From an uncultured delta proteobacterium (lineage in GTDB: Bacteria > Myxococcota_A > Polyangia > Polyangiales > Polyangiaceae): a DNA stretch of 64,000 nt. This document shows positions 5,489 through 54,201 of this stretch, piece by piece. The stretch's first letter is position 1; the number at the start of each line of letters is the position of its first letter. The translations under genes were made by a program, and so were the position numbers. The DNA is taken from positions 224,001 through 288,000 of the forward strand of contig CAVQUB010000021.1 in NCBI GenBank assembly GCA_963716725.1. The letters run 5' to 3'. The notes under the pieces are model-generated. The model worked only from the letters and a program-made list of their open reading frames with translations, was not told where the DNA came from and did no database searches.

Positions 5489-6010
5489 TCACCCCGCGCA
5501 ACTGCCGTTGGTGCAGGTCTGCTTCTCGGCGCAAGCTCTGCCGCATGCGCCGCAGTTGGCTTCGTCGTAGTTGGGATTGACGCAGCCGCTGGCGCAACAG
5601 ATTTGGTTCTTGCCGCAGTCGTCCCCACCATTGCACGAGCATTGAATATTTCCGCCTTGAGACCGGCAGACTTCGCCCGGGCGACACGAATCCCCGTCGC
5701 ACACGCAGCGCCCGTCGTTGTTGCACTGGACGGATCCGCTCGAAGCACACTGCGCGGCCGCGGTGCAACGGCAACGCTGGCTCTCGCAGACCATGCCGAT
5801 CGGACAGAGACCGCAGTCGCCGGCACCGCCAGCCCCCGCCGCGCCTCCGGCCCCGCCCGCGCCTCCGGCCCCGCCCGCGCCGCCGGCCGCCGTGCCACCC
5901 ACACCCGCCGTGCCACCGGCAGCCCCGGCGTCCGCGAACTCGAAAGCGTCGTAGTCGTTGGTGCAGCCGATGACCAGCATGCCGCAGGCTAGAACGAGAG
6001 CTCTCCCCAT
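5489..6010 (-). CDS. Gly-rich linker / Cys-rich lipoprotein
   Basis: lipobox VIGC, GGAGG linker, many Cys, C-terminal NCGACGRAC motif typical of myxobacterial Cys-rich repeats. Confidence 0.75.
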   Translation of the reverse strand: MGRALVLACGMLVIGCTNDYDAFEFADAGAAGGTAGVGGTAAGGAGGAGGAGGAGGAAGAGGAGDCGLCPIGMVCESQRCRCTAAAQCASSGSVQCNNDGRCVCDGDSCRPGEVCRSQGGNIQCSCNGGDDCGKNQICCASGCVNPNYDEANCGACGRACAEKQTCTNGSCAG

Positions 6011-47949: not shown

Positions 47950-49097
47950 CGAATACACTGAACCTCAAGCGCGGCGCGTCTCGAGCCAAGGACGAACTCG
48001 AAGCTGCGAGAGAGCTCTGGGAGGCCATCGGTCAGCCAGACATCTCGTTCTGCCTGTTCTTCTGCTCTCCCAACTACGACGTGAAGAAGCTCGGCCCGGC
48101 CCTCGCCGAGCACTTCGGCGCCTTGCCAATGCTGGGCTGCACGACAGCCGGAGAGATTTCGCCGACAGGCTACCTGAGCGGAGCGATCACCGGCATCAGC
48201 ATCGCTAGCCCAGACTTCAGGGTCGTGACGCGTCGCATCGACCAGCTCAATGCCTTCGATCTCGATGACGGTGAGAGGACGATCACTTCGCTCCTTGCAG
48301 AGCTCAAACAGGTCGGCGAACCACCGACGAGCGAAAACACCTTCGCGTTCTTGCTGGTCGATGGCCTGAGCCTACAGGAAGAGCGGGTGGTGGCGGGCCT
48401 GTGTCGCGGCATTGGCGACATCCAGCTTTTCGGCGGCTCCGCCGGCGACGAGGAGAACTTCTCGGCCACATACCTCTTCCATGACGGCGCATTTCACGAC
48501 AACGCGGCGGTGGTGGCTTTGGTGCAGACCCAGCGCCCCTTTCACGTCTTCAAGACCCAACACTTCGTGCCATCGGACGCGAAGCTCGTCGTCACCGGCG
48601 CAGATCCAGCCAATAGGGTAGTGACCGAGATCAACGGGGACCCCGCGGGCGCCGAGTACGCACGGCTCGTTGGCCTCGAAGTCGACAAGCTCACACCGAT
48701 GATCTTCGCGACCTACCCCGTGGTCGTGCGCCTTGGCGGCGACTACTACGTGCGCTCGATCCAGAAGGTGAACGAGGACGGGAGCCTCACGTTTTTCTGC
48801 GCCATCGACGAAGGCGTCGTGCTGACGATCGCGCAGGGCGTGGATTTCATTCAGAACCTCGAGGACGCCTTTGTAGGGGTCCAAAAGGCGGTGGGCGTGC
48901 CCGAGCTCGTCATCGGCTGTGACTGCATCCTCAGGAAGCTGGAGAGCGAGCAGAAGGGCATCAAGGCGCAGATCTCGGAGCTCATGACCAAGAACAACGT
49001 CATCGGTTTCGCCACCTACGGCGAACAGTTCAACGCGATGCACGTGAACCAGACCTTCACCGGCGTCGCCATCGGCGCGATGAGCGATGGCGAGTGA
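47946..49097 (+). CDS. nosP: FIST-domain sensor, NosP-like
   Basis: [63 protein letters not shown]. Confidence 0.88.
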
Positions 49098-50874
49098 TGA
49101 ATTCAACGAGCTAGAGCTTCTCCGAAGCCGGAACGCTCGGCTCGAGAAGATCAACCGCGCGCTCATGGATCGGGTAGAGCGCTCGATGGACCAGCAGGGC
49201 AGCGCCTACTCTCTGTTCCAGACCGCGACTGCGATGGAGGGCGAGCTTCGCAAGCGAACCGCAGCGCTCCGCAGCACCATGGAGGAGCTCGAGCGCTCCA
49301 ACCGCGATCTGTCCACGGCCAAAGAACTCGCCGACGCGGCCAATCGGGCCAAGTCCGACTTCCTTGCCAACATGAGCCACGAAATCCGCACGCCACTCAA
49401 CGGCGTGTTGGGCATGGTGGGTCTGCTCCTGAAGACCGATCTGGGACCGACCCAAGAGCACTACGCCGAGACGGTCCGGCGCTCCGGCGACATCCTGCTC
49501 CGGATCATCAACGACATCCTCGATTTCTCGAAGATAGAGGCTGGTAAGCTGGAGCTGGAAAACACCAGCTACGATCTCAGGAGGGTCGTGGAGGACGCCA
49601 TCGAAGGGTTCGCCACGCGCGCTCACAACGCGCGGACAGAGCTGATCTGCGAGATCGCGCCTGAAGTCCCCCGAATCGTCAGCGGCGACCCTTTGCGGGT
49701 TCATCAGGTGCTCGCCAACTTGCTCTCCAACGCCATCAAGTTTTCCTGCAACGGAGACGTACGCCTCATCGTCGAAGTCCAGAAGGCACCTCCGGTCGAC
49801 GCCATTCGCTTCGAGGTTCACGACCAGGGGCAGGGGTTGAGCGGCGAGCAATGCACGCGCTTGTTCAGTGCGTTCACTCAAGCGGATACTTCGACCACGC
49901 GCCGGTTCGGCGGGACTGGCCTCGGCCTCGCCATCAGCAAGCAGCTCACCGAGATGATGGGGGGACGGATCGGGGTGCGGACTGCCATTGGCGAAGGCAG
50001 CACCTTTCATTTCACCGTGCCCTTCGATGCATCCGCGGCTCGAGCGACGGGCTGGGTCCCGAAGTTGTTCGACCGAACCGCCCTCGTCGTGGACGCGAGC
50101 GAAGGCAGCGGTCGGGCGCTGCTCACTCAGCTGGCGAGGCTGGGCCTTCACGCGACTCACCAGAGAAGTCTGGCCTCGGGGGCCAGCTGGCTCTCTGCCC
50201 AAGCTGGCGCCGTCGACTTGATCGTGGTGTCTCGCGAGACGGTCGGCAAAGACGACGCGGAGATCCACAGCGTCCTCGCGGCGAGCGGCCACCCCGAAGC
50301 GAAGACGCTGCTGCTGACGCCGTTTCTGGCTGACCTTGCGGAGTCGGCCGGCTCCACTGCCTACGACGCTGCCACGCACAAGCCGGTCACGCCCAGCCGG
50401 CTTCGAAGTGTCGTGGAGGCCGTGGTCGCGCCCGAGTTGAAGCCTCGACGCCGCAGTGTGAGCGTCCCGACCTCGAGACCCGCGCTCGGCGAGGTCGCCA
50501 GACCTCGGGTGCTCGTCGCGGAGGACAACCCCACGAACCAATTGGTCATCACCGCTCTCCTGGCGGAGCTCGGCTACGCAGCCGTCGTGGTCGGCAACGG
50601 AAGCGAGGCCATCGCCGCGCTCGAGGAGCCCCATGAAATTCGGGCTGTGCTCATGGACTGGCAGATGCCGATCATGGATGGAGTGGTGGCGACTCGCGAA
50701 ATCCGCCGGCTCGAAGCACTCCGGGGCACACGCGTACCCATCATTGGTCTGACCGCGCACGCGCTCAGCGACCAGAAGTCGGTCGCGCTCGATTCGGGCA
50801 TGGACGAATACCTCACCAAGCCGGTTCGTGAGGAGGAGCTGGCCCGAGCGCTGACGCGGTGGTGCGGAGTATGA
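49087..50874 (+). CDS. NosP-associated hybrid histidine kinase (NahK-like), with pseudo-REC and REC domains
   Basis: N-terminal [57 protein letters not shown]. Confidence 0.88.
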
Positions 50875-50916
50875 GAGCCCAGAAGCGACCAGCGGCGCCG
50901 AAGCGGCGCCCCGCGC

Positions 50917-51412
50917 CTAGTGCCGCGCGGCCGAAGTTCGAGTGGATTCGCCCCTGAGACCTGCGCTCATTTGGGCTCTCACAGGAAGGGCGGAAGAGCG
51001 GAAGGATTTGGGGTGGTCAGGCGTTAGCCTCCGCAGGCCATTTCTGAGCGCGGTCACGTTGAAGTTGACGAGCAGGCCGACGGGCAACCGCGAAAGGCGC
51101 AGATAGGTGATGACCTGCGCTTCGTAAATCGGGAGCAGCCGCTCGACCGCCTTGAGCTCCAGGAGGATACGATCTGGAAGCGACCAGGTCGAGGCGATAG
51201 GCGCTGTCAAGGTGCACGCCTTTGTAGCGGATTGGTAGCGGTCGCTGCCGCTCGAACTTGAGCCGTCGTTCGGACAGCTCGGCAGATAGACAGGCCTCAT
51301 ATGCGGATTCCATCAGCCCTGGACCGAGATGCCGATGCACCTCGATCAGCGCACCGATCACCTCGTCCGTCCCATCCCCAAATCTTCCGAGCTTTCGCCC
51401 TTCCTGTGCCAT
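50917..51412 (-). CDS. GxxExxY PD-(D/E)XK nuclease-like protein, +1 frameshift near 51176
   Basis: IEVHRHLGPGLMESAYEACL, YRLDLV, then in the next frame ILLELKAVE, AQVITYL, GLLVNF. Confidence 0.9.
50980..51013 (+). repeat. inverted repeat arm at the 3' end of the GxxExxY gene
   Basis: CACAGGAAGGGCGGAAGAGCGGAAGGATTTGGGG; pairs with 51376-51408. Confidence 0.85.
51376..51408 (-). repeat. inverted repeat arm at the 5' end of the GxxExxY gene
   Basis: reverse complement CACAGGAAGGGCGAAAGCTCGGAAGATTTGGGG; 3 mismatches and 1 gap versus the other arm. Confidence 0.85.
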
Positions 51413-51439
51413 CCCCGTGTGGTCGGGCCTCACTCCGAA

Positions 51440-52100
51440 ACAGTTGCTGTCCGGCCACCATCGGAATGTCAGCGTAGCGGCGTTCGAGCGCCTGGATGCC
51501 GGTCTTCTCGTCGACGCACACGATGTGCTCCTTCTTTGGCGTCTCGTAGTAGACGCGCAGCACGTCGTCGCGCTTCCCCCTGAACTCGTCGTCGTGCGAA
51601 GTCAGGTACATTTGTTGCCGATGCGGTTGCAGGTCAGCATCCTTGAGTATGCGGCCCACCGACCGGTCGCTGATCTGAATTCCTTGCGCGCGAACGTGCA
51701 CGCCAAGCAACGACGCTGACCAGTGCGTGACGGGCACGCCGACGTCGCTCGGCGGTCGACACGCTTCTGCTTCTACTCGAGCCGCTACGGTGTCCGAGAG
51801 AGAGGGCGGCCGTCCCGAGCGCGGGGCGTCCGCCAGTCTCTCGCTAGGTGCCGCGCAGTCGAAGCGCTTGCGCCAGTCGTCCACCGTGCGCACGTGCACC
51901 CCGAGGAGCCGGGCGATGTCCGTCGCAGGCACTCCGTCCGCCATCATCAACACGGCCTGCGCCCGACGAACCAGCCGCTGCTCCGCCCTGGCGGGTCGCA
52001 ACGCCTCCTCGATCCGCGCGCGCTCTTCAGCCCTCAGCGCGAGCGGAACCGTCGGACGACCACCGTGCGCTCGGCCCGCGAACGCGCTGTAGTCGATCAT
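51440..52100 (-). pseudogene. IS630 transposase, truncated after the first catalytic Asp
   Basis: HTH region (IARLLGV, DAPRSGRP, THWS, LQPHR) and CVDEKTGIQALER; the later DDE motifs are absent. Confidence 0.88.
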
Positions 52101-52165
52101 GTCACCCCACTACACCGACGACACGCACACGGAAAAGAAACCAGCGAAACTTCTGCCGCGCGGCA

Positions 52166-53509
52166 CTAGTCGCTCGCGCCCGGGCGCGCGGCAACGCTGC
52201 GTCTGGGCGCGGCCGGCTCGCGCGGCGGATCAGCGAGCTCGTCGGCGAGATCGAAGGCCACGAAGCGCCCCGAGAGGTGCGGCGCTTCGCTGACCCACAG
52301 CGTGCGGCGACCACAGTCGAAGACGACGCCATGGGTGGCGATGTCCGCGTCGATGGCGCGCCGATCGCCCGCTGGCAGCGAGGCGCCACCTGCTGCCTTG
52401 CGATCGCGCAGGAGGCGTACCGCGTCCTCGACGGTCACGGGGCGGGTCAGGGTCGAGACGAGCTCGCGCCCTCGGGCCTCGCGCTCGAGCGTGGTGGTCT
52501 CGCGGCGCACCCGCTGGTTCTTCGGATCGCCCGCGAGGGGCCCCTCGAAGTGATTGGTGACCGCGGCCCGCGTGGGCAGCGCGCGGGCGTGGGGCGGCGA
52601 GCCCGGAACGCGCTCGATGGCAGAGGCGTGTCCGCCGGCGTCCGCGGCGATGACGATGTGGCTGACCATGGGCTCGCGCAGGGCAAATGCCTTCACCGCT
52701 TCGTCCACCGTGCGGGCGGTGGACAGCACGCGCCGGAGCGCGTGAACGACGGGCTCGCCCTGCGCTCGCGGTTCACCCGCGCGTCCGCCGTGCACCACCA
52801 GCGCCAGACCCTCGCGATTCATGCCGCTGACGACACCCGGCAGACCCGGCCAGGCCACCGAGGCGAAGGGGATCTGCCCCGCTTCGTTCACGAAGAAGAC
52901 CGCTTTCTGCTCGTCGAACACGTCGTGCACGTCGAAGTCGAAGGCGCGGGCCAGCAGGGTGTGTCCGTCCTCCGCGGCTTCTCGCGCGAAGGTGAAGCTG
53001 GTGCAGCCGATGAGCGGAGAGCTCTCGAATGAGAGCGCGATGTCGTAGAGCGCGTTCAAGTAGACGAAACGCTGATAGGTGGGGAAGAACCCGGTGTAGG
53101 GATCGGGGGCGAATCCGAGGGCAGCGGCGGCGAGCTCCCGGCGTCGCGCTGGATCGATCTCGCGGTCGAGATCACGATAGCGGAGCTGCGCCAGATCCAA
53201 GACCAGCCAGCGCAGTGGCGCCGGGCGCACGGAATGCTCGAACTGCCCGAGCAGGACGCGCTCGTTGTGCATCATGTCCTGTCGCAGCAGGCGCGCGTGG
53301 GAAAACCCGATCTCTTCCGGGCTTCCAGCGAGATGCACGACGCGCAGGCTGCCTTCCCGTGAGAGTCGTGAGCGGCCAAGCATGCCTTCGCTCACGCTGA
53401 CCGCGGGCGGCTCGAGGCGCGCTCGAAGTCCAATGCCAACGTGGCTCGCGCCGAGGCCGACGGCCAGACCGAGAACCGCGACCAAGACGGCGCGCCGACG
53501 ACGCGTCAC
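52166..53509 (-). CDS. C45-family autoproteolytic acyltransferase/hydrolase (Ntn)
   Basis: GCTSF, ARAFDF, VSGMNREGL, VTNHF, IATHGVVFD; N-terminal TM. Confidence 0.88.
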   Translation of the reverse strand: MTRRRRAVLVAVLGLAVGLGASHVGIGLRARLEPPAVSVSEGMLGRSRLSREGSLRVVHLAGSPEEIGFSHARLLRQDMMHNERVLLGQFEHSVRPAPLRWLVLDLAQLRYRDLDREIDPARRRELAAAALGFAPDPYTGFFPTYQRFVYLNALYDIALSFESSPLIGCTSFTFAREAAEDGHTLLARAFDFDVHDVFDEQKAVFFVNEAGQIPFASVAWPGLPGVVSGMNREGLALVVHGGRAGEPRAQGEPVVHALRRVLSTARTVDEAVKAFALREPMVSHIVIAADAGGHASAIERVPGSPPHARALPTRAAVTNHFEGPLAGDPKNQRVRRETTTLEREARGRELVSTLTRPVTVEDAVRLLRDRKAAGGASLPAGDRRAIDADIATHGVVFDCGRRTLWVSEAPHLSGRFVAFDLADELADPPREPAAPRRSVAARPGASD

Positions 53510-54201
53510 GCGCCCCCACGACCCAACAGCAGGGTAGACACGACCCTGGCGACGATGCGCGCCGGATCGCGCACCGAGTTGAAGTGGGTGCGTCGGTCCG
53601 AGGGGTAGATCACGCGGATCGGGACCTGCTCGATGAAGACTCCCGCGCGGGCCGCGAGCAGCACGATCTCCGCCTCGAAGGCGTAGCCGGTCGAGCGGGC
53701 GCCCAGCGCCAGCGTGCGCTGGAGGGGATAGCGCCGGAGCCCACACTGAGTGTCCAGCAGTCGGCGGCCAGTGAACCCCGACAAGAAGAAATTCGAGATA
53801 GCGTTCGACCGTTGGTTTGCGCGGGGCGCACCGGCGCCGACGAGATCTCGGATCCCGAGCAGCAACGACTCGACGGGAGCCGGATGGATCGCGAGCTTGA
53901 TGGCCTCGCCGGCAGGGTGTTGTCCGTCGGCGTCCACGCTGACGACGGCCTCGGCGCCGAAGGCCCGGGCGCGCTCGAAGCCAGTTCGAAGCGCCGCGCC
54001 CTTGCCTTGGTTCTTCGGGTGACGCACCACGTAGGCGCCCGCGTCCCGGGCCACGGATCCGGTTCGATCGCCGGAGCCGTCGTCAACCACGATCACCGCG
54101 GGCATGCCTTCGACCTTCGGCCACGACGCGCGAAGGGCGTGAACGACCTCACCCACCGACCGCTCGGCGAAGTATGCGGGAACGAGCGCGACCACGCGCA
54201 T
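53506..54201 (-). CDS. glycosyltransferase family 2
   Basis: VVDDGSGD, NQGKGAAL, DADGQH, DTQCGLR. Confidence 0.92.
   Translation of the reverse strand: MRVVALVPAYFAERSVGEVVHALRASWPKVEGMPAVIVVDDGSGDRTGSVARDAGAYVVRHPKNQGKGAALRTGFERARAFGAEAVVSVDADGQHPAGEAIKLAIHPAPVESLLLGIRDLVGAGAPRANQRSNAISNFFLSGFTGRRLLDTQCGLRRYPLQRTLALGARSTGYAFEAEIVLLAARAGVFIEQVPIRVIYPSDRRTHFNSVRDPARIVARVVSTLLLGRGGA

Follow-up and report, generated by a model that had tools for sequence, protein, structure and literature searches.

The 64-kb window analysed here, the whole stretch of 64,000 nucleotides from an uncultured delta proteobacterium, contains a copy of the insertion sequence (IS) IS630 in which the catalytic half of the transposase is missing and a small nuclease gene of the GxxExxY family (TIGR04256; PF13366, PDDEXK_3) is found. 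The gene is enclosed by an inverted repeat, the inner arms, and belongs to a larger cassette with a second, outer repeat. An original prediction, made from the letters of the window, took the gene and its inner arms for a minimal mobile element. In order of position, the parts of the locus are:

50918..50919, no strand: TA target duplication, copy 1; also part of the TAG stop of the read-through frame.
50920-52166, minus strand: IS630 element, 1247 bp, with both terminal repeats and TA on each side.
50920..50953, minus strand: terminal 34 nt of IS630, with the terminal inverted repeat and the last 11 codons of the transposase (GESTRTSAARH).
50954..50974, minus strand: outer terminal repeat, at the 3' end of the cassette in gene orientation; IS10-like and degenerate, with 4 mismatches to the arm of a relative, locus L003; its 5' partner is missing.
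50980..51013, minus strand: inner arm on the 3' side of the gene; three tandem 8-9-nt units of the CTTCCGCC type, translated as PKSFRSSALPV.
51014..51375, minus strand: GxxExxY / PDDEXK_3 nuclease core, a pseudogene matched by the TIGR04256 and PF13366 profiles, with a 1-nt insertion at ~51180.
51376..51408, minus strand: inner arm on the 5' side of the gene (CACAGGAAGGGCGAAAGCTCGGAAG...), translated as QEGRKLGRFG; the arm does not quite reach the ATG, 51412-51410.
51413..51447, minus strand: cassette leader, truncated; by alignment and the end sequence of L003, ~34 nt of the 5' end of the cassette, including the outer repeat, are missing.
51448..52100, minus strand: N-terminal part of the IS630 transposase, with the helix-turn-helix (HTH) domains and the region of the first catalytic Asp; homology stops at ...PMVAGQ.
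52101..52166, minus strand: 5' untranslated end of IS630 including its terminal inverted repeat, placed by the terminal-repeat pattern.
52167..52168, no strand: TA target duplication of IS630, copy 2.

The GxxExxY protein is spread over two reading frames of the minus strand between 50917 and 51433. Positions 3-67 of the TIGR04256 profile are matched in one frame (E 2.1e-21) and positions 68-114 in the next (E 2.6e-13); the two halves score 76.4 + 50.4 bits against a cut-off of 35, and 72.9 + 49.4 bits with PF13366 (cut-off 22). The match is split between profile positions 67 and 68 by one extra nucleotide at ~51180, seen by comparison with 7/7 aligned relatives and lying 4 nt from the frameshift originally placed at 51176. 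Another 1-nt indel lies between the 3' inner and 3' outer arms and masks the TGA at which the relatives stop. Because this indel shifts the cassette's own stop out of frame, the reading frame continues into the IS630 terminus, and the predicted run into a transposase tail is borne out by it and by the last 11 residues, which are IS630-like (at most 7/11 identical). The window translations contain GLMESAY, RLD and ELK, that is, the G-x-x-E-x-x-Y motif together with D...E-x-K. As an intact open reading frame (ORF) is lacking, the window copy belongs to the family as a pseudogene.

The identification as a gene of the PD-(D/E)XK type is supported by these profile matches and by conservation: across 94 homologues G32, E35, Y38, D75, E85 and K87 are invariant or at least 90% conserved. 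An AlphaFold model of P0001, an intact relative 95% identical to the window protein, has a pLDDT (predicted local distance difference test) of 88.6. Its best Foldseek matches are Cas4 SSO0001 (E 3.9e-3), lambda exonuclease, the AddAB nuclease domain and Hjc; all are weak, with TM (template modelling) scores of 0.4-0.5 and none at E <=1e-3, but the modelled fold appears PD-(D/E)XK-like, a type characterised by an alpha-beta-beta-beta-alpha-beta core. A sequence search of the PDB gave no match at E <=1, and a homodimer prediction for the nuclease core (residues 12-132) scored 0.00, which counts neither for nor against a dimer.

The inner inverted repeat was found where it had been described. A gapped local alignment of 50980-51013 with 51376-51408 has 30 matches, 3 mismatches and 1 gap in 34 columns; without gaps the arms extend over 44 nt (50973-51016 / 51372-51415) at 77% complementarity. 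The alignment score is 45, and none of 1000 shuffles reaches it (mean 15.9, sd 2.3, maximum 29). The arms do encode the N-terminal and C-terminal peptides of the protein, as stated, and their 17-nt core CACAGGAAGGGCGRAAG occurs in the 64 kb at these two sites only. A weak repeat nearby, 50872-50892 / 50961-50981, was judged to be a chance match. Two metagenome proteins bear on the join and on the break in the gene. P0140 (99% identical, cluster of 11 sequences) has the same IS630/GxxExxY junction peptide. P0108 (cluster of 5 sequences on 5 contigs) is continuous across ~51180 in the post-insertion frame of the window, with further frame changes elsewhere, and appears from its sequence to share the insertion, so that a one-off sequencing error is less likely. 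With P0140 and P0108 supporting join and break, a one-off assembly error is unlikely. Given the shuffles and these two proteins, it is scarcely credible that the repeat is fortuitous or that the IS630/GxxExxY join is an assembly chimera.

The IS630 shell is well defined at its ends. The pattern TAGTGCCGCGCGGCMGAAGTT matches only 50918-50938 (+) and 52148-52168 (-) in the window, with 0 matches expected by chance. The transposase, starting at 52100, covers positions 1-170 of the 299 in profile NF033545 (E 4e-32). Comparison with P0124, P0130 and P0122 indicates that its identity is genuine up to residue 144 of P0124; residues 145-290 are missing, a loss of ~146 codons (~438 nt) that takes in the remainder of the DDE domain. 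Full-length relatives P0124 and P0130 have the C-terminus ...KSW..TSAGRH, and the read-through frame of the window ends in ...GESTRTSAARH followed by TAG at the IS end. When this 11-residue tail is end-anchored on the C-termini of 89 homologues of at least 280 aa, at most 7/11 residues are identical, a number that shuffled tails get to in 2/1000 trials; by BLASTP so short a stretch gives no significant match to IS630 homologues (E 1.5-3.9). A local protein alignment that carried the IS630 frame on to 51414 was rejected, since identity falls to 3 of the final 12 residues, where the nucleotides are those of the cassette leader. The shell thus shares with IS630 / Tc1-mariner elements the terminal inverted repeats, the duplicated TA, an HTH region at the N-terminus and the beginning of the DDE domain, but the cassette replaces the rest of the catalytic domain; in place of a complete DDE transposase there is a non-autonomous element. 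Within the transposase gene, GTGCCGCGCAGTCGAAG at 51848-51864 agrees with the terminal repeat 50920-50936 at 15/17 positions and points the same way; this near-copy could serve as an internal binding site or be a chance match.

The limits of the cassette emerge from its relatives. A scan of 185,579 species genomes with P0001 gave 142 relatives, and the best 80 loci were kept (L001-L080). Among these 80 loci, nucleotide similarity between the window and its closest relatives (L003, L004, L013, L001) covers 50953-51447, and with L003, L004 and L013 it runs to 51445-51447 and then stops. The IS630 part of the window is found in none of the loci compared. Both IS630 junctions lie outside the inner repeat, 26 nt past one arm and 39 nt past the other. 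The idea of an insertion or replacement in IS630 therefore survives in part: an IS630 copy was invaded and its catalytic half is missing, but the junctions are not tied to the inner repeats, an outcome that the prediction had itself named as counting against it.

The full cassette is ~530 bp long and consists of an outer IS10-like terminal repeat, a short leader, an inner arm, the PD-(D/E)XK ORF, the other inner arm and the other outer terminal repeat. The leader before the 5' arm is conserved in the alignment of relatives (GCAACTG...CCCGA...GGGG ATG). The outer inverted repeat reads CTGAGGCATCCCCTCATTTGG ... CCAAATGAGGGGATGCCTCAG in the alignment; outer arms of the type CTGAGGCATCCCCTCATTTGG occur in L001, L003, L004 and L013 and on the 3' side of the window cassette, and the outer ends have the pattern CTGAGG.ATCCCCTCAT. 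Exact 9-bp direct repeats are present in three of the four loci with both outer arms: GACGCGGCG in L003, GATTCCGCG in L013 and ATACCCGAC in L004, where removal of one ATACCCGAC copy restores an 18-nt tandem repeat in the target. The fourth locus, L001, whose outer arms are degenerate, has no 9-bp target duplication. L003 and L004 belong to one metagenome-assembled genome (MAG) and are 97.7% identical over 527 nt in unrelated flanks; another MAG contains three copies, L005, L007 and L013. The statement that no target duplication is visible thus holds for the inner repeat of the window copy but not for its relatives, which have duplications outside the outer repeat. In the window copy itself the 5' end of the cassette, next to which one target copy would have stood, is deleted.

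The outer ends resemble the termini of IS10 on plasmid R100 (CTGAGAGATCCCCTCAT / CTGATGAATCCCCTAAT), matching 15/17 positions from the terminal base. The match is short (score 24-26, with 0-3/200 shuffles as high) and is seen at both arms of the complete relatives L003, L004 and L013; the window keeps one arm, and this is degenerate. IS10 itself makes 9-bp target duplications. Passages of one source give duplications of ~10 bp for IS4-family elements (PMC2266710). The outer IS10-like repeats and the 9-bp duplications point to a DDE transposase acting in trans rather than to the nuclease. Judged from these sequences, the mobility signature in the lineage of the window belongs to the outer repeats and their target duplications, and mobilisation by a non-DDE nuclease, as first proposed, is not supported for this lineage. 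The cassettes of the window clade resemble IS4-family mobile insertion cassettes (MICs) or miniature inverted-repeat transposable elements (MITEs) of the MIC231 type, with IS10 ends, in having IS10-like ends (15/17) and 9-bp duplications around a gene that is not a transposase. They differ in that no cognate transposase was found by tblastn in the 80 loci and the window, that the host is myxobacterium-like rather than a Bacillus or an enterobacterium, and that the cargo has a nested inverted repeat of its own.

These boundaries bear most directly on the proposal that a 430-bp transposon, ending in the inner repeats 50980-51013 / 51376-51408, was moved into IS630, or exchanged for the IS630 core, by the GxxExxY nuclease. 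The repeat is real and conserved, and in some other lineages (the pairs L067/L077 and L024/L029) similarity between copies ends at the arms, as this proposal would have it. In the window copy and its closest relatives, however, the shared unit runs past both arms; complete relatives are bounded by another repeat, the outer one, with 9-bp duplications, and the 5' junction in the window cuts through the cassette leader, as a deletion scar would and a transposon end would not. We regard this proposal as very improbable.

A different local history seems to fit the locus better. The cassette would have been moved in trans by an IS4-family (IS10-like) DDE transposase and would have transposed into an IS630 copy, 34 nt from its end. 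One later deletion of ~480 nt could have taken the first ~34 nt of the cassette, one copy of the 9-bp target and the catalytic half of IS630; the join lies in a possible CAGC microhomology. After the deletion the nuclease gene would have decayed through the 1-nt insertion at ~51180 and the indel that hides its stop. Cassette and IS alike are dead, the window copy being a pseudogene within a defective element rather than the active minimal mobile element first envisaged. The remnant is inert, and at most it might be carried passively on the intact IS630 ends.

Several relatives show rearranged cassettes. L004 (6284-6596) has a 158-nt tandem duplication of the 3' part of the cassette, with an outer arm ending each copy, and L005 (3346-4128) has a rearranged cassette with repeated 5' and 3' pieces; recombination seems to be frequent at GxxExxY cassettes. 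In L006 a well-preserved arm (5918-5954) lies upstream of the leader, while only a degenerate arm follows the ATG, where it is normally found. An older layout, with the promoter region also between the arms, may be preserved here.

Although the inner repeat is not a transposon end in the window, it is a hallmark of the GxxExxY family. In each locus the 150 nt preceding codon 15 were aligned to the reverse-complemented 150 nt following codon 125; 79 of the 80 loci could be evaluated, L015 having too little flank. A flanking repeat that scores at least 30 and exceeds all 100 shuffles is present in 60/79 loci, so such repeats do recur across GxxExxY homologues, as the prediction required. Control windows displaced by 600-2400 nt reach a score of 30 in 17/996 cases. 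The arms have a median length of 30 nt, with about three tandem 8-9-nt units each, and they lie at constant offsets, with a median of 31 nt ahead of codon 15 and of 32 nt behind codon 125. The unit varies with lineage: it is CACAGGAAG/GGCGGAAG in the window and CACAGAGG, CGCAGAGG, CACGGAG, CATGAAG, CACCAAG or CACAAAG elsewhere. Its architecture, of tandem 8-9-nt units with ...ACCAC/ACCGC termini, is shared across more than 12 phyla. By record titles, the loci belong to Myxococcota, Acidobacteriota, Planctomycetota, Verrucomicrobiota, Chloroflexota, Armatimonadota, Gemmatimonadota, Omnitrophota, Cloacimonadota, Pseudomonadota and others.

Two observations suggest mis-binning, mislabelling or recent transfer. 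L001, labelled Phycisphaerales, has a cassette of the myxobacterial type, and L034 and L043 share 91% identity across 12.3 kb surrounding the GxxExxY gene, their MAGs being labelled Actinomycetota and Verrucomicrobiae.

The two arms change together. In the window clade (12 sequences) 85.1% of cells pair, compared with 76.4% when partners are shuffled (0/500 as high) and 45-54% when they are slid. Changes on both sides account for 17/33 of the pairs, compared with 11.0 for shuffled partners (0/500) and 5-7 for slid partners; the replacement of CAGGAAG/CTTCCTG by CAGGGAG/CTCCCTG is an example. The embedding of the arms in the ORF, which had been taken as a property of the element, is true of the window but peculiar to its clade: both arms lie inside the ORF in only 8/60 loci, and the 3' arm precedes the first in-frame stop in 11/60. 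In the model of P0001 the ends encoded by the arms have low confidence, with mean pLDDT of 40 for residues 1-10 and of 67 and 55 within 131-144, and the peptides are predicted to be disordered. It is thus at the nucleotide level that the arms are conserved.

The unit bounded by the arms is discrete. Alignments that cover the gene were examined between non-syntenic loci, pairs sharing more than 900 nt being left out as syntenic. Similarity ends within 10 nt of the outer end of the arm in 33/102 alignments on each side, and continues more than 25 nt past it in 6/102 on the 5' side and 8/102 on the 3' side. The unit is also multi-copy, and its arms occur without the gene. In 533 kb there are 22 extra arm copies more than 700 nt from the gene, in 10/60 loci, where 0.1 would be expected from shuffled probes. 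Eight of the 22 are arm pairs 10-70 nt apart that form near-perfect hairpins, with DNA folding energies of -26 to -48 kcal/mol. The gene-less hairpin in L009 has the GGAAG-type arm of the window. That in L033 retains ~20 nt of the start region of the gene past the arm and so looks like an internal-deletion derivative. Both the discreteness of the unit and the existence of gene-less derivatives accord with what had been anticipated for a mobile unit.

Bacterial interspersed mosaic elements (BIMEs) are arrays of alternating repeats and offer a comparison for L039 (Acidobacteriota), where forward and reverse arms alternate between 5540 and 6650 with a period of ~181 nt and the gene occupies the place of the 28-nt loop of an adjacent arm pair; L045, L057 and L073 also have such arrays. 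Neither the inner arms nor the gene-less hairpins are bordered by a visible target duplication. The longer proteins, of which 55 were found, are tandem GxxExxY genes or read-through fusions with adjacent housekeeping genes; peptides encoded by the arms lie at the joints, which indicates tight intergenic insertion. One such read-through ORF, P0287 (metagenome/NCBI, 528 aa), combines GxxExxY, FabZ-like and Y1_Tnp (IS200/RAYT-type) domains. The proximity of a GxxExxY unit to a tyrosine-transposase gene may be a coincidence or a hint of shared repeat targets.

Taken together, these observations lead us to a joint reading, to which we assign a probability of about 0.5. The locus would record the nested history of a cassette in IS630, and the inner arms would be a cis element of the family in a unit related to autonomous or MITE-like elements or to the partnership of repetitive extragenic palindromic (REP) doublets, or REPINs, with REP-associated tyrosine transposases (RAYTs). 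The arms would be a lineage-specific, hairpin-forming pair that delimits an ancestral unit of arm, nuclease gene and arm. The nuclease would recognise its own arms, probably in hairpin or cruciform form, and cut the DNA there, and host repair or recombination would copy units, with or without the gene, to new places. Cutting at the arms and copying by the host would account for both the multi-copy genes and the scattered gene-less hairpins. A DNA-level relation of the REPIN/RAYT or MITE-like kind is favoured because the gene-less hairpins lie away from ORFs, because arm mismatches have no G:U bias, and because the nuclease is the only gene inside the unit.

Several points weigh against this. 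Strand transfer is not known for PD-(D/E)XK hydrolases, so that the nuclease has to leave copying to host repair. The link between nuclease and arms is drawn from sequence rather than from biochemistry or genetics, and the deletion history given for the window copy is reconstructed. A tblastn search of the 80 loci and the window with the transposase of R100 IS10 detected no IS10-like transposase, and the enzyme that would mobilise the cassette in trans is hypothetical. The co-variation counts include close relatives and represent ~4-5 independent lineages. The 5' arm is not terminal in the window clade or in L012/L051 but lies ~40 nt inside. Within the 64 kb of the window the arm motif is present only at the cassette, so that a REP-like abundance is unproven for this genome. 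Two further features, the orientation of the arms and their Shine-Dalgarno-like content, fit a role in RNA as well.

It is indeed possible that the arms act in RNA. In the mRNA they could form a stem around the ORF that hides the start region or Shine-Dalgarno-like units, or that makes an RNase III site as in the intervening sequences located in helix 25 or 45 of 23S rRNA, of which Leptospira provides a case; a potentially toxic nuclease would be silenced, or excision from host transcripts made possible. This is a serious alternative, albeit an unlikely one. The arms hug the ORF at constant distance. The purine-rich arm is upstream in 41 loci and downstream in 8 (of 60). Every arm unit in L001-L080 has a Shine-Dalgarno-like core (GGAG, GAGG or GAAGG) on its purine-rich strand, and the opposite strand has an anti-Shine-Dalgarno-like CCTC or CTCC. 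In the predicted RNA fold of 50975-51415 (441 nt; -205.4 kcal/mol, z -5.49) the arm pair is the closing stem. Moreover, intervening sequences with an ORF and flanking stems are known. Relevant passages of one source describe such sequences in 23S rRNA as a stem around a small ORF of unknown function, the S23p / four-helix-bundle protein (PMC4990558), and the GxxExxY units share with them a size of ~400-750 nt and a long stem of flanking repeats around an ORF of ~120 aa; the protein family is a different one.

Other evidence is at odds with a role in RNA. Mismatches of the G.U type are not enriched in the arms (66 G.T compared with 65 A.C), as befits an element acting at the level of DNA. Gene-less hairpins lie kilobases away with no ORF to regulate, and eight loci have the reverse polarity. 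In the window and the 12 of the 80 loci that were searched there was no match to rRNA or to any other Rfam family at gathering thresholds, none of these 12 loci lying in rRNA.

The gene might, alternatively, be cargo only. An unrelated transposase would then move an ordinary MITE-like family whose terminal repeats are the arms, and the GxxExxY protein, perhaps a defence or addiction nuclease, would not act on the arms. The unit of the window clade demonstrably rides on foreign IS10-like ends, so that GxxExxY units can be passengers, and transposase-less cassettes bounded by IS ends have a precedent in MIC231, as cited in PMC2266710. Yet the association of one arm architecture with this gene across more than 12 phyla would need a constant partner of unknown nature; the arms are lineage-specific and track the gene, and neither the inner arms nor the gene-less hairpins have a visible target duplication. 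We consider that the nuclease is improbable as a mere passenger, to about the same degree as an action of the arms in RNA.

A bolder extension of the joint reading is put forward tentatively, as the less probable outcome. GxxExxY genes and their arms could constitute a widespread class of autonomous, nuclease-driven mobile elements that have no DDE, HUH or serine/tyrosine recombinase. The nuclease would cut the hairpin or cruciform of its own arms and host repair would copy the unit, and the gene-less hairpins would be MITE/REPIN-like dependants, in more than 12 bacterial phyla.

The closest parallel is with REPIN/RAYT systems, described in the passages concerned as REP doublets with REP-associated tyrosine transposases, a small nuclease-type gene being flanked by inverted, lineage-specific repeats (PMC3337134, PMC3116915). 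GxxExxY units have a flanked gene (60/79 loci) and dispersed gene-less doublets of the same repeats (22 copies in 10/60 loci), show no target duplication and sometimes have arms in BIME-like alternating arrays (L039). The enzyme, in contrast, has a putative PD-(D/E)XK fold (PF13366) rather than that of an HUH/Y1 transposase, and profile searches gave no Y1_Tnp match in the window unit; a RAYT is thus absent from it. The tandem 8-9-nt units of the arms are not palindromic in themselves, and GTAG/CGTC heads are lacking. The gene is multi-copy rather than single-copy, and a high genomic abundance of the hairpins is conjectural. By analogy, the GxxExxY unit at most works like a REPIN/RAYT system and is not a member of that group. 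Free-standing homing endonuclease genes are likewise small, selfish, nuclease-only units whose spread would depend on host repair, but the GxxExxY unit is flanked by repeats and has neither an intron or intein context nor a defined empty target allele.

PF13366/TIGR04256 is a very large family, and the function of PF13366 is entered as 'Unknown' in the relevant part of one tabulation (PMC3424549). One paper has GxxExxY as a single annotation next to a reverse transcriptase gene. The open PubMed Central and bioRxiv literature that was searched contained no report linking GxxExxY/PF13366 to repeats or mobility, and among the papers listed there was no joint mention of PDDEXK with REP, REPIN or RAYT. 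The co-varying arms that bracket its genes in most lineages, the discreteness of the unit and the gene-less hairpins give the family a testable hypothesis, that of a repeat-associated nuclease analogous to RAYTs. It is plausible that the family-wide hairpin architecture is a new variant of repeat-nuclease partnerships; if so, a new class of enzyme would join the short list of proteins that maintain populations of palindromic repeats in bacterial genomes. The arms also explain the odd low-complexity peptides at the N- and C-termini of annotated GxxExxY proteins and their read-through 'fusions' with neighbours, and the nested case described here, a hairpin unit within IS10-like ends within IS630, should help in the annotation of similar relics.

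A search of the 37 large ORFs of the window yielded no other transposase. The IS630 relic has a histidine kinase gene (49087-50874) on one side and an AAT-family gene (52166-53746) on the other, and its surroundings are the ordinary chromosomal genes of a myxobacterium-like genome with 68% GC, among them those for a FIST protein, hybrid histidine kinases, EF-G, MscS channels and an acyl-CoA dehydrogenase.

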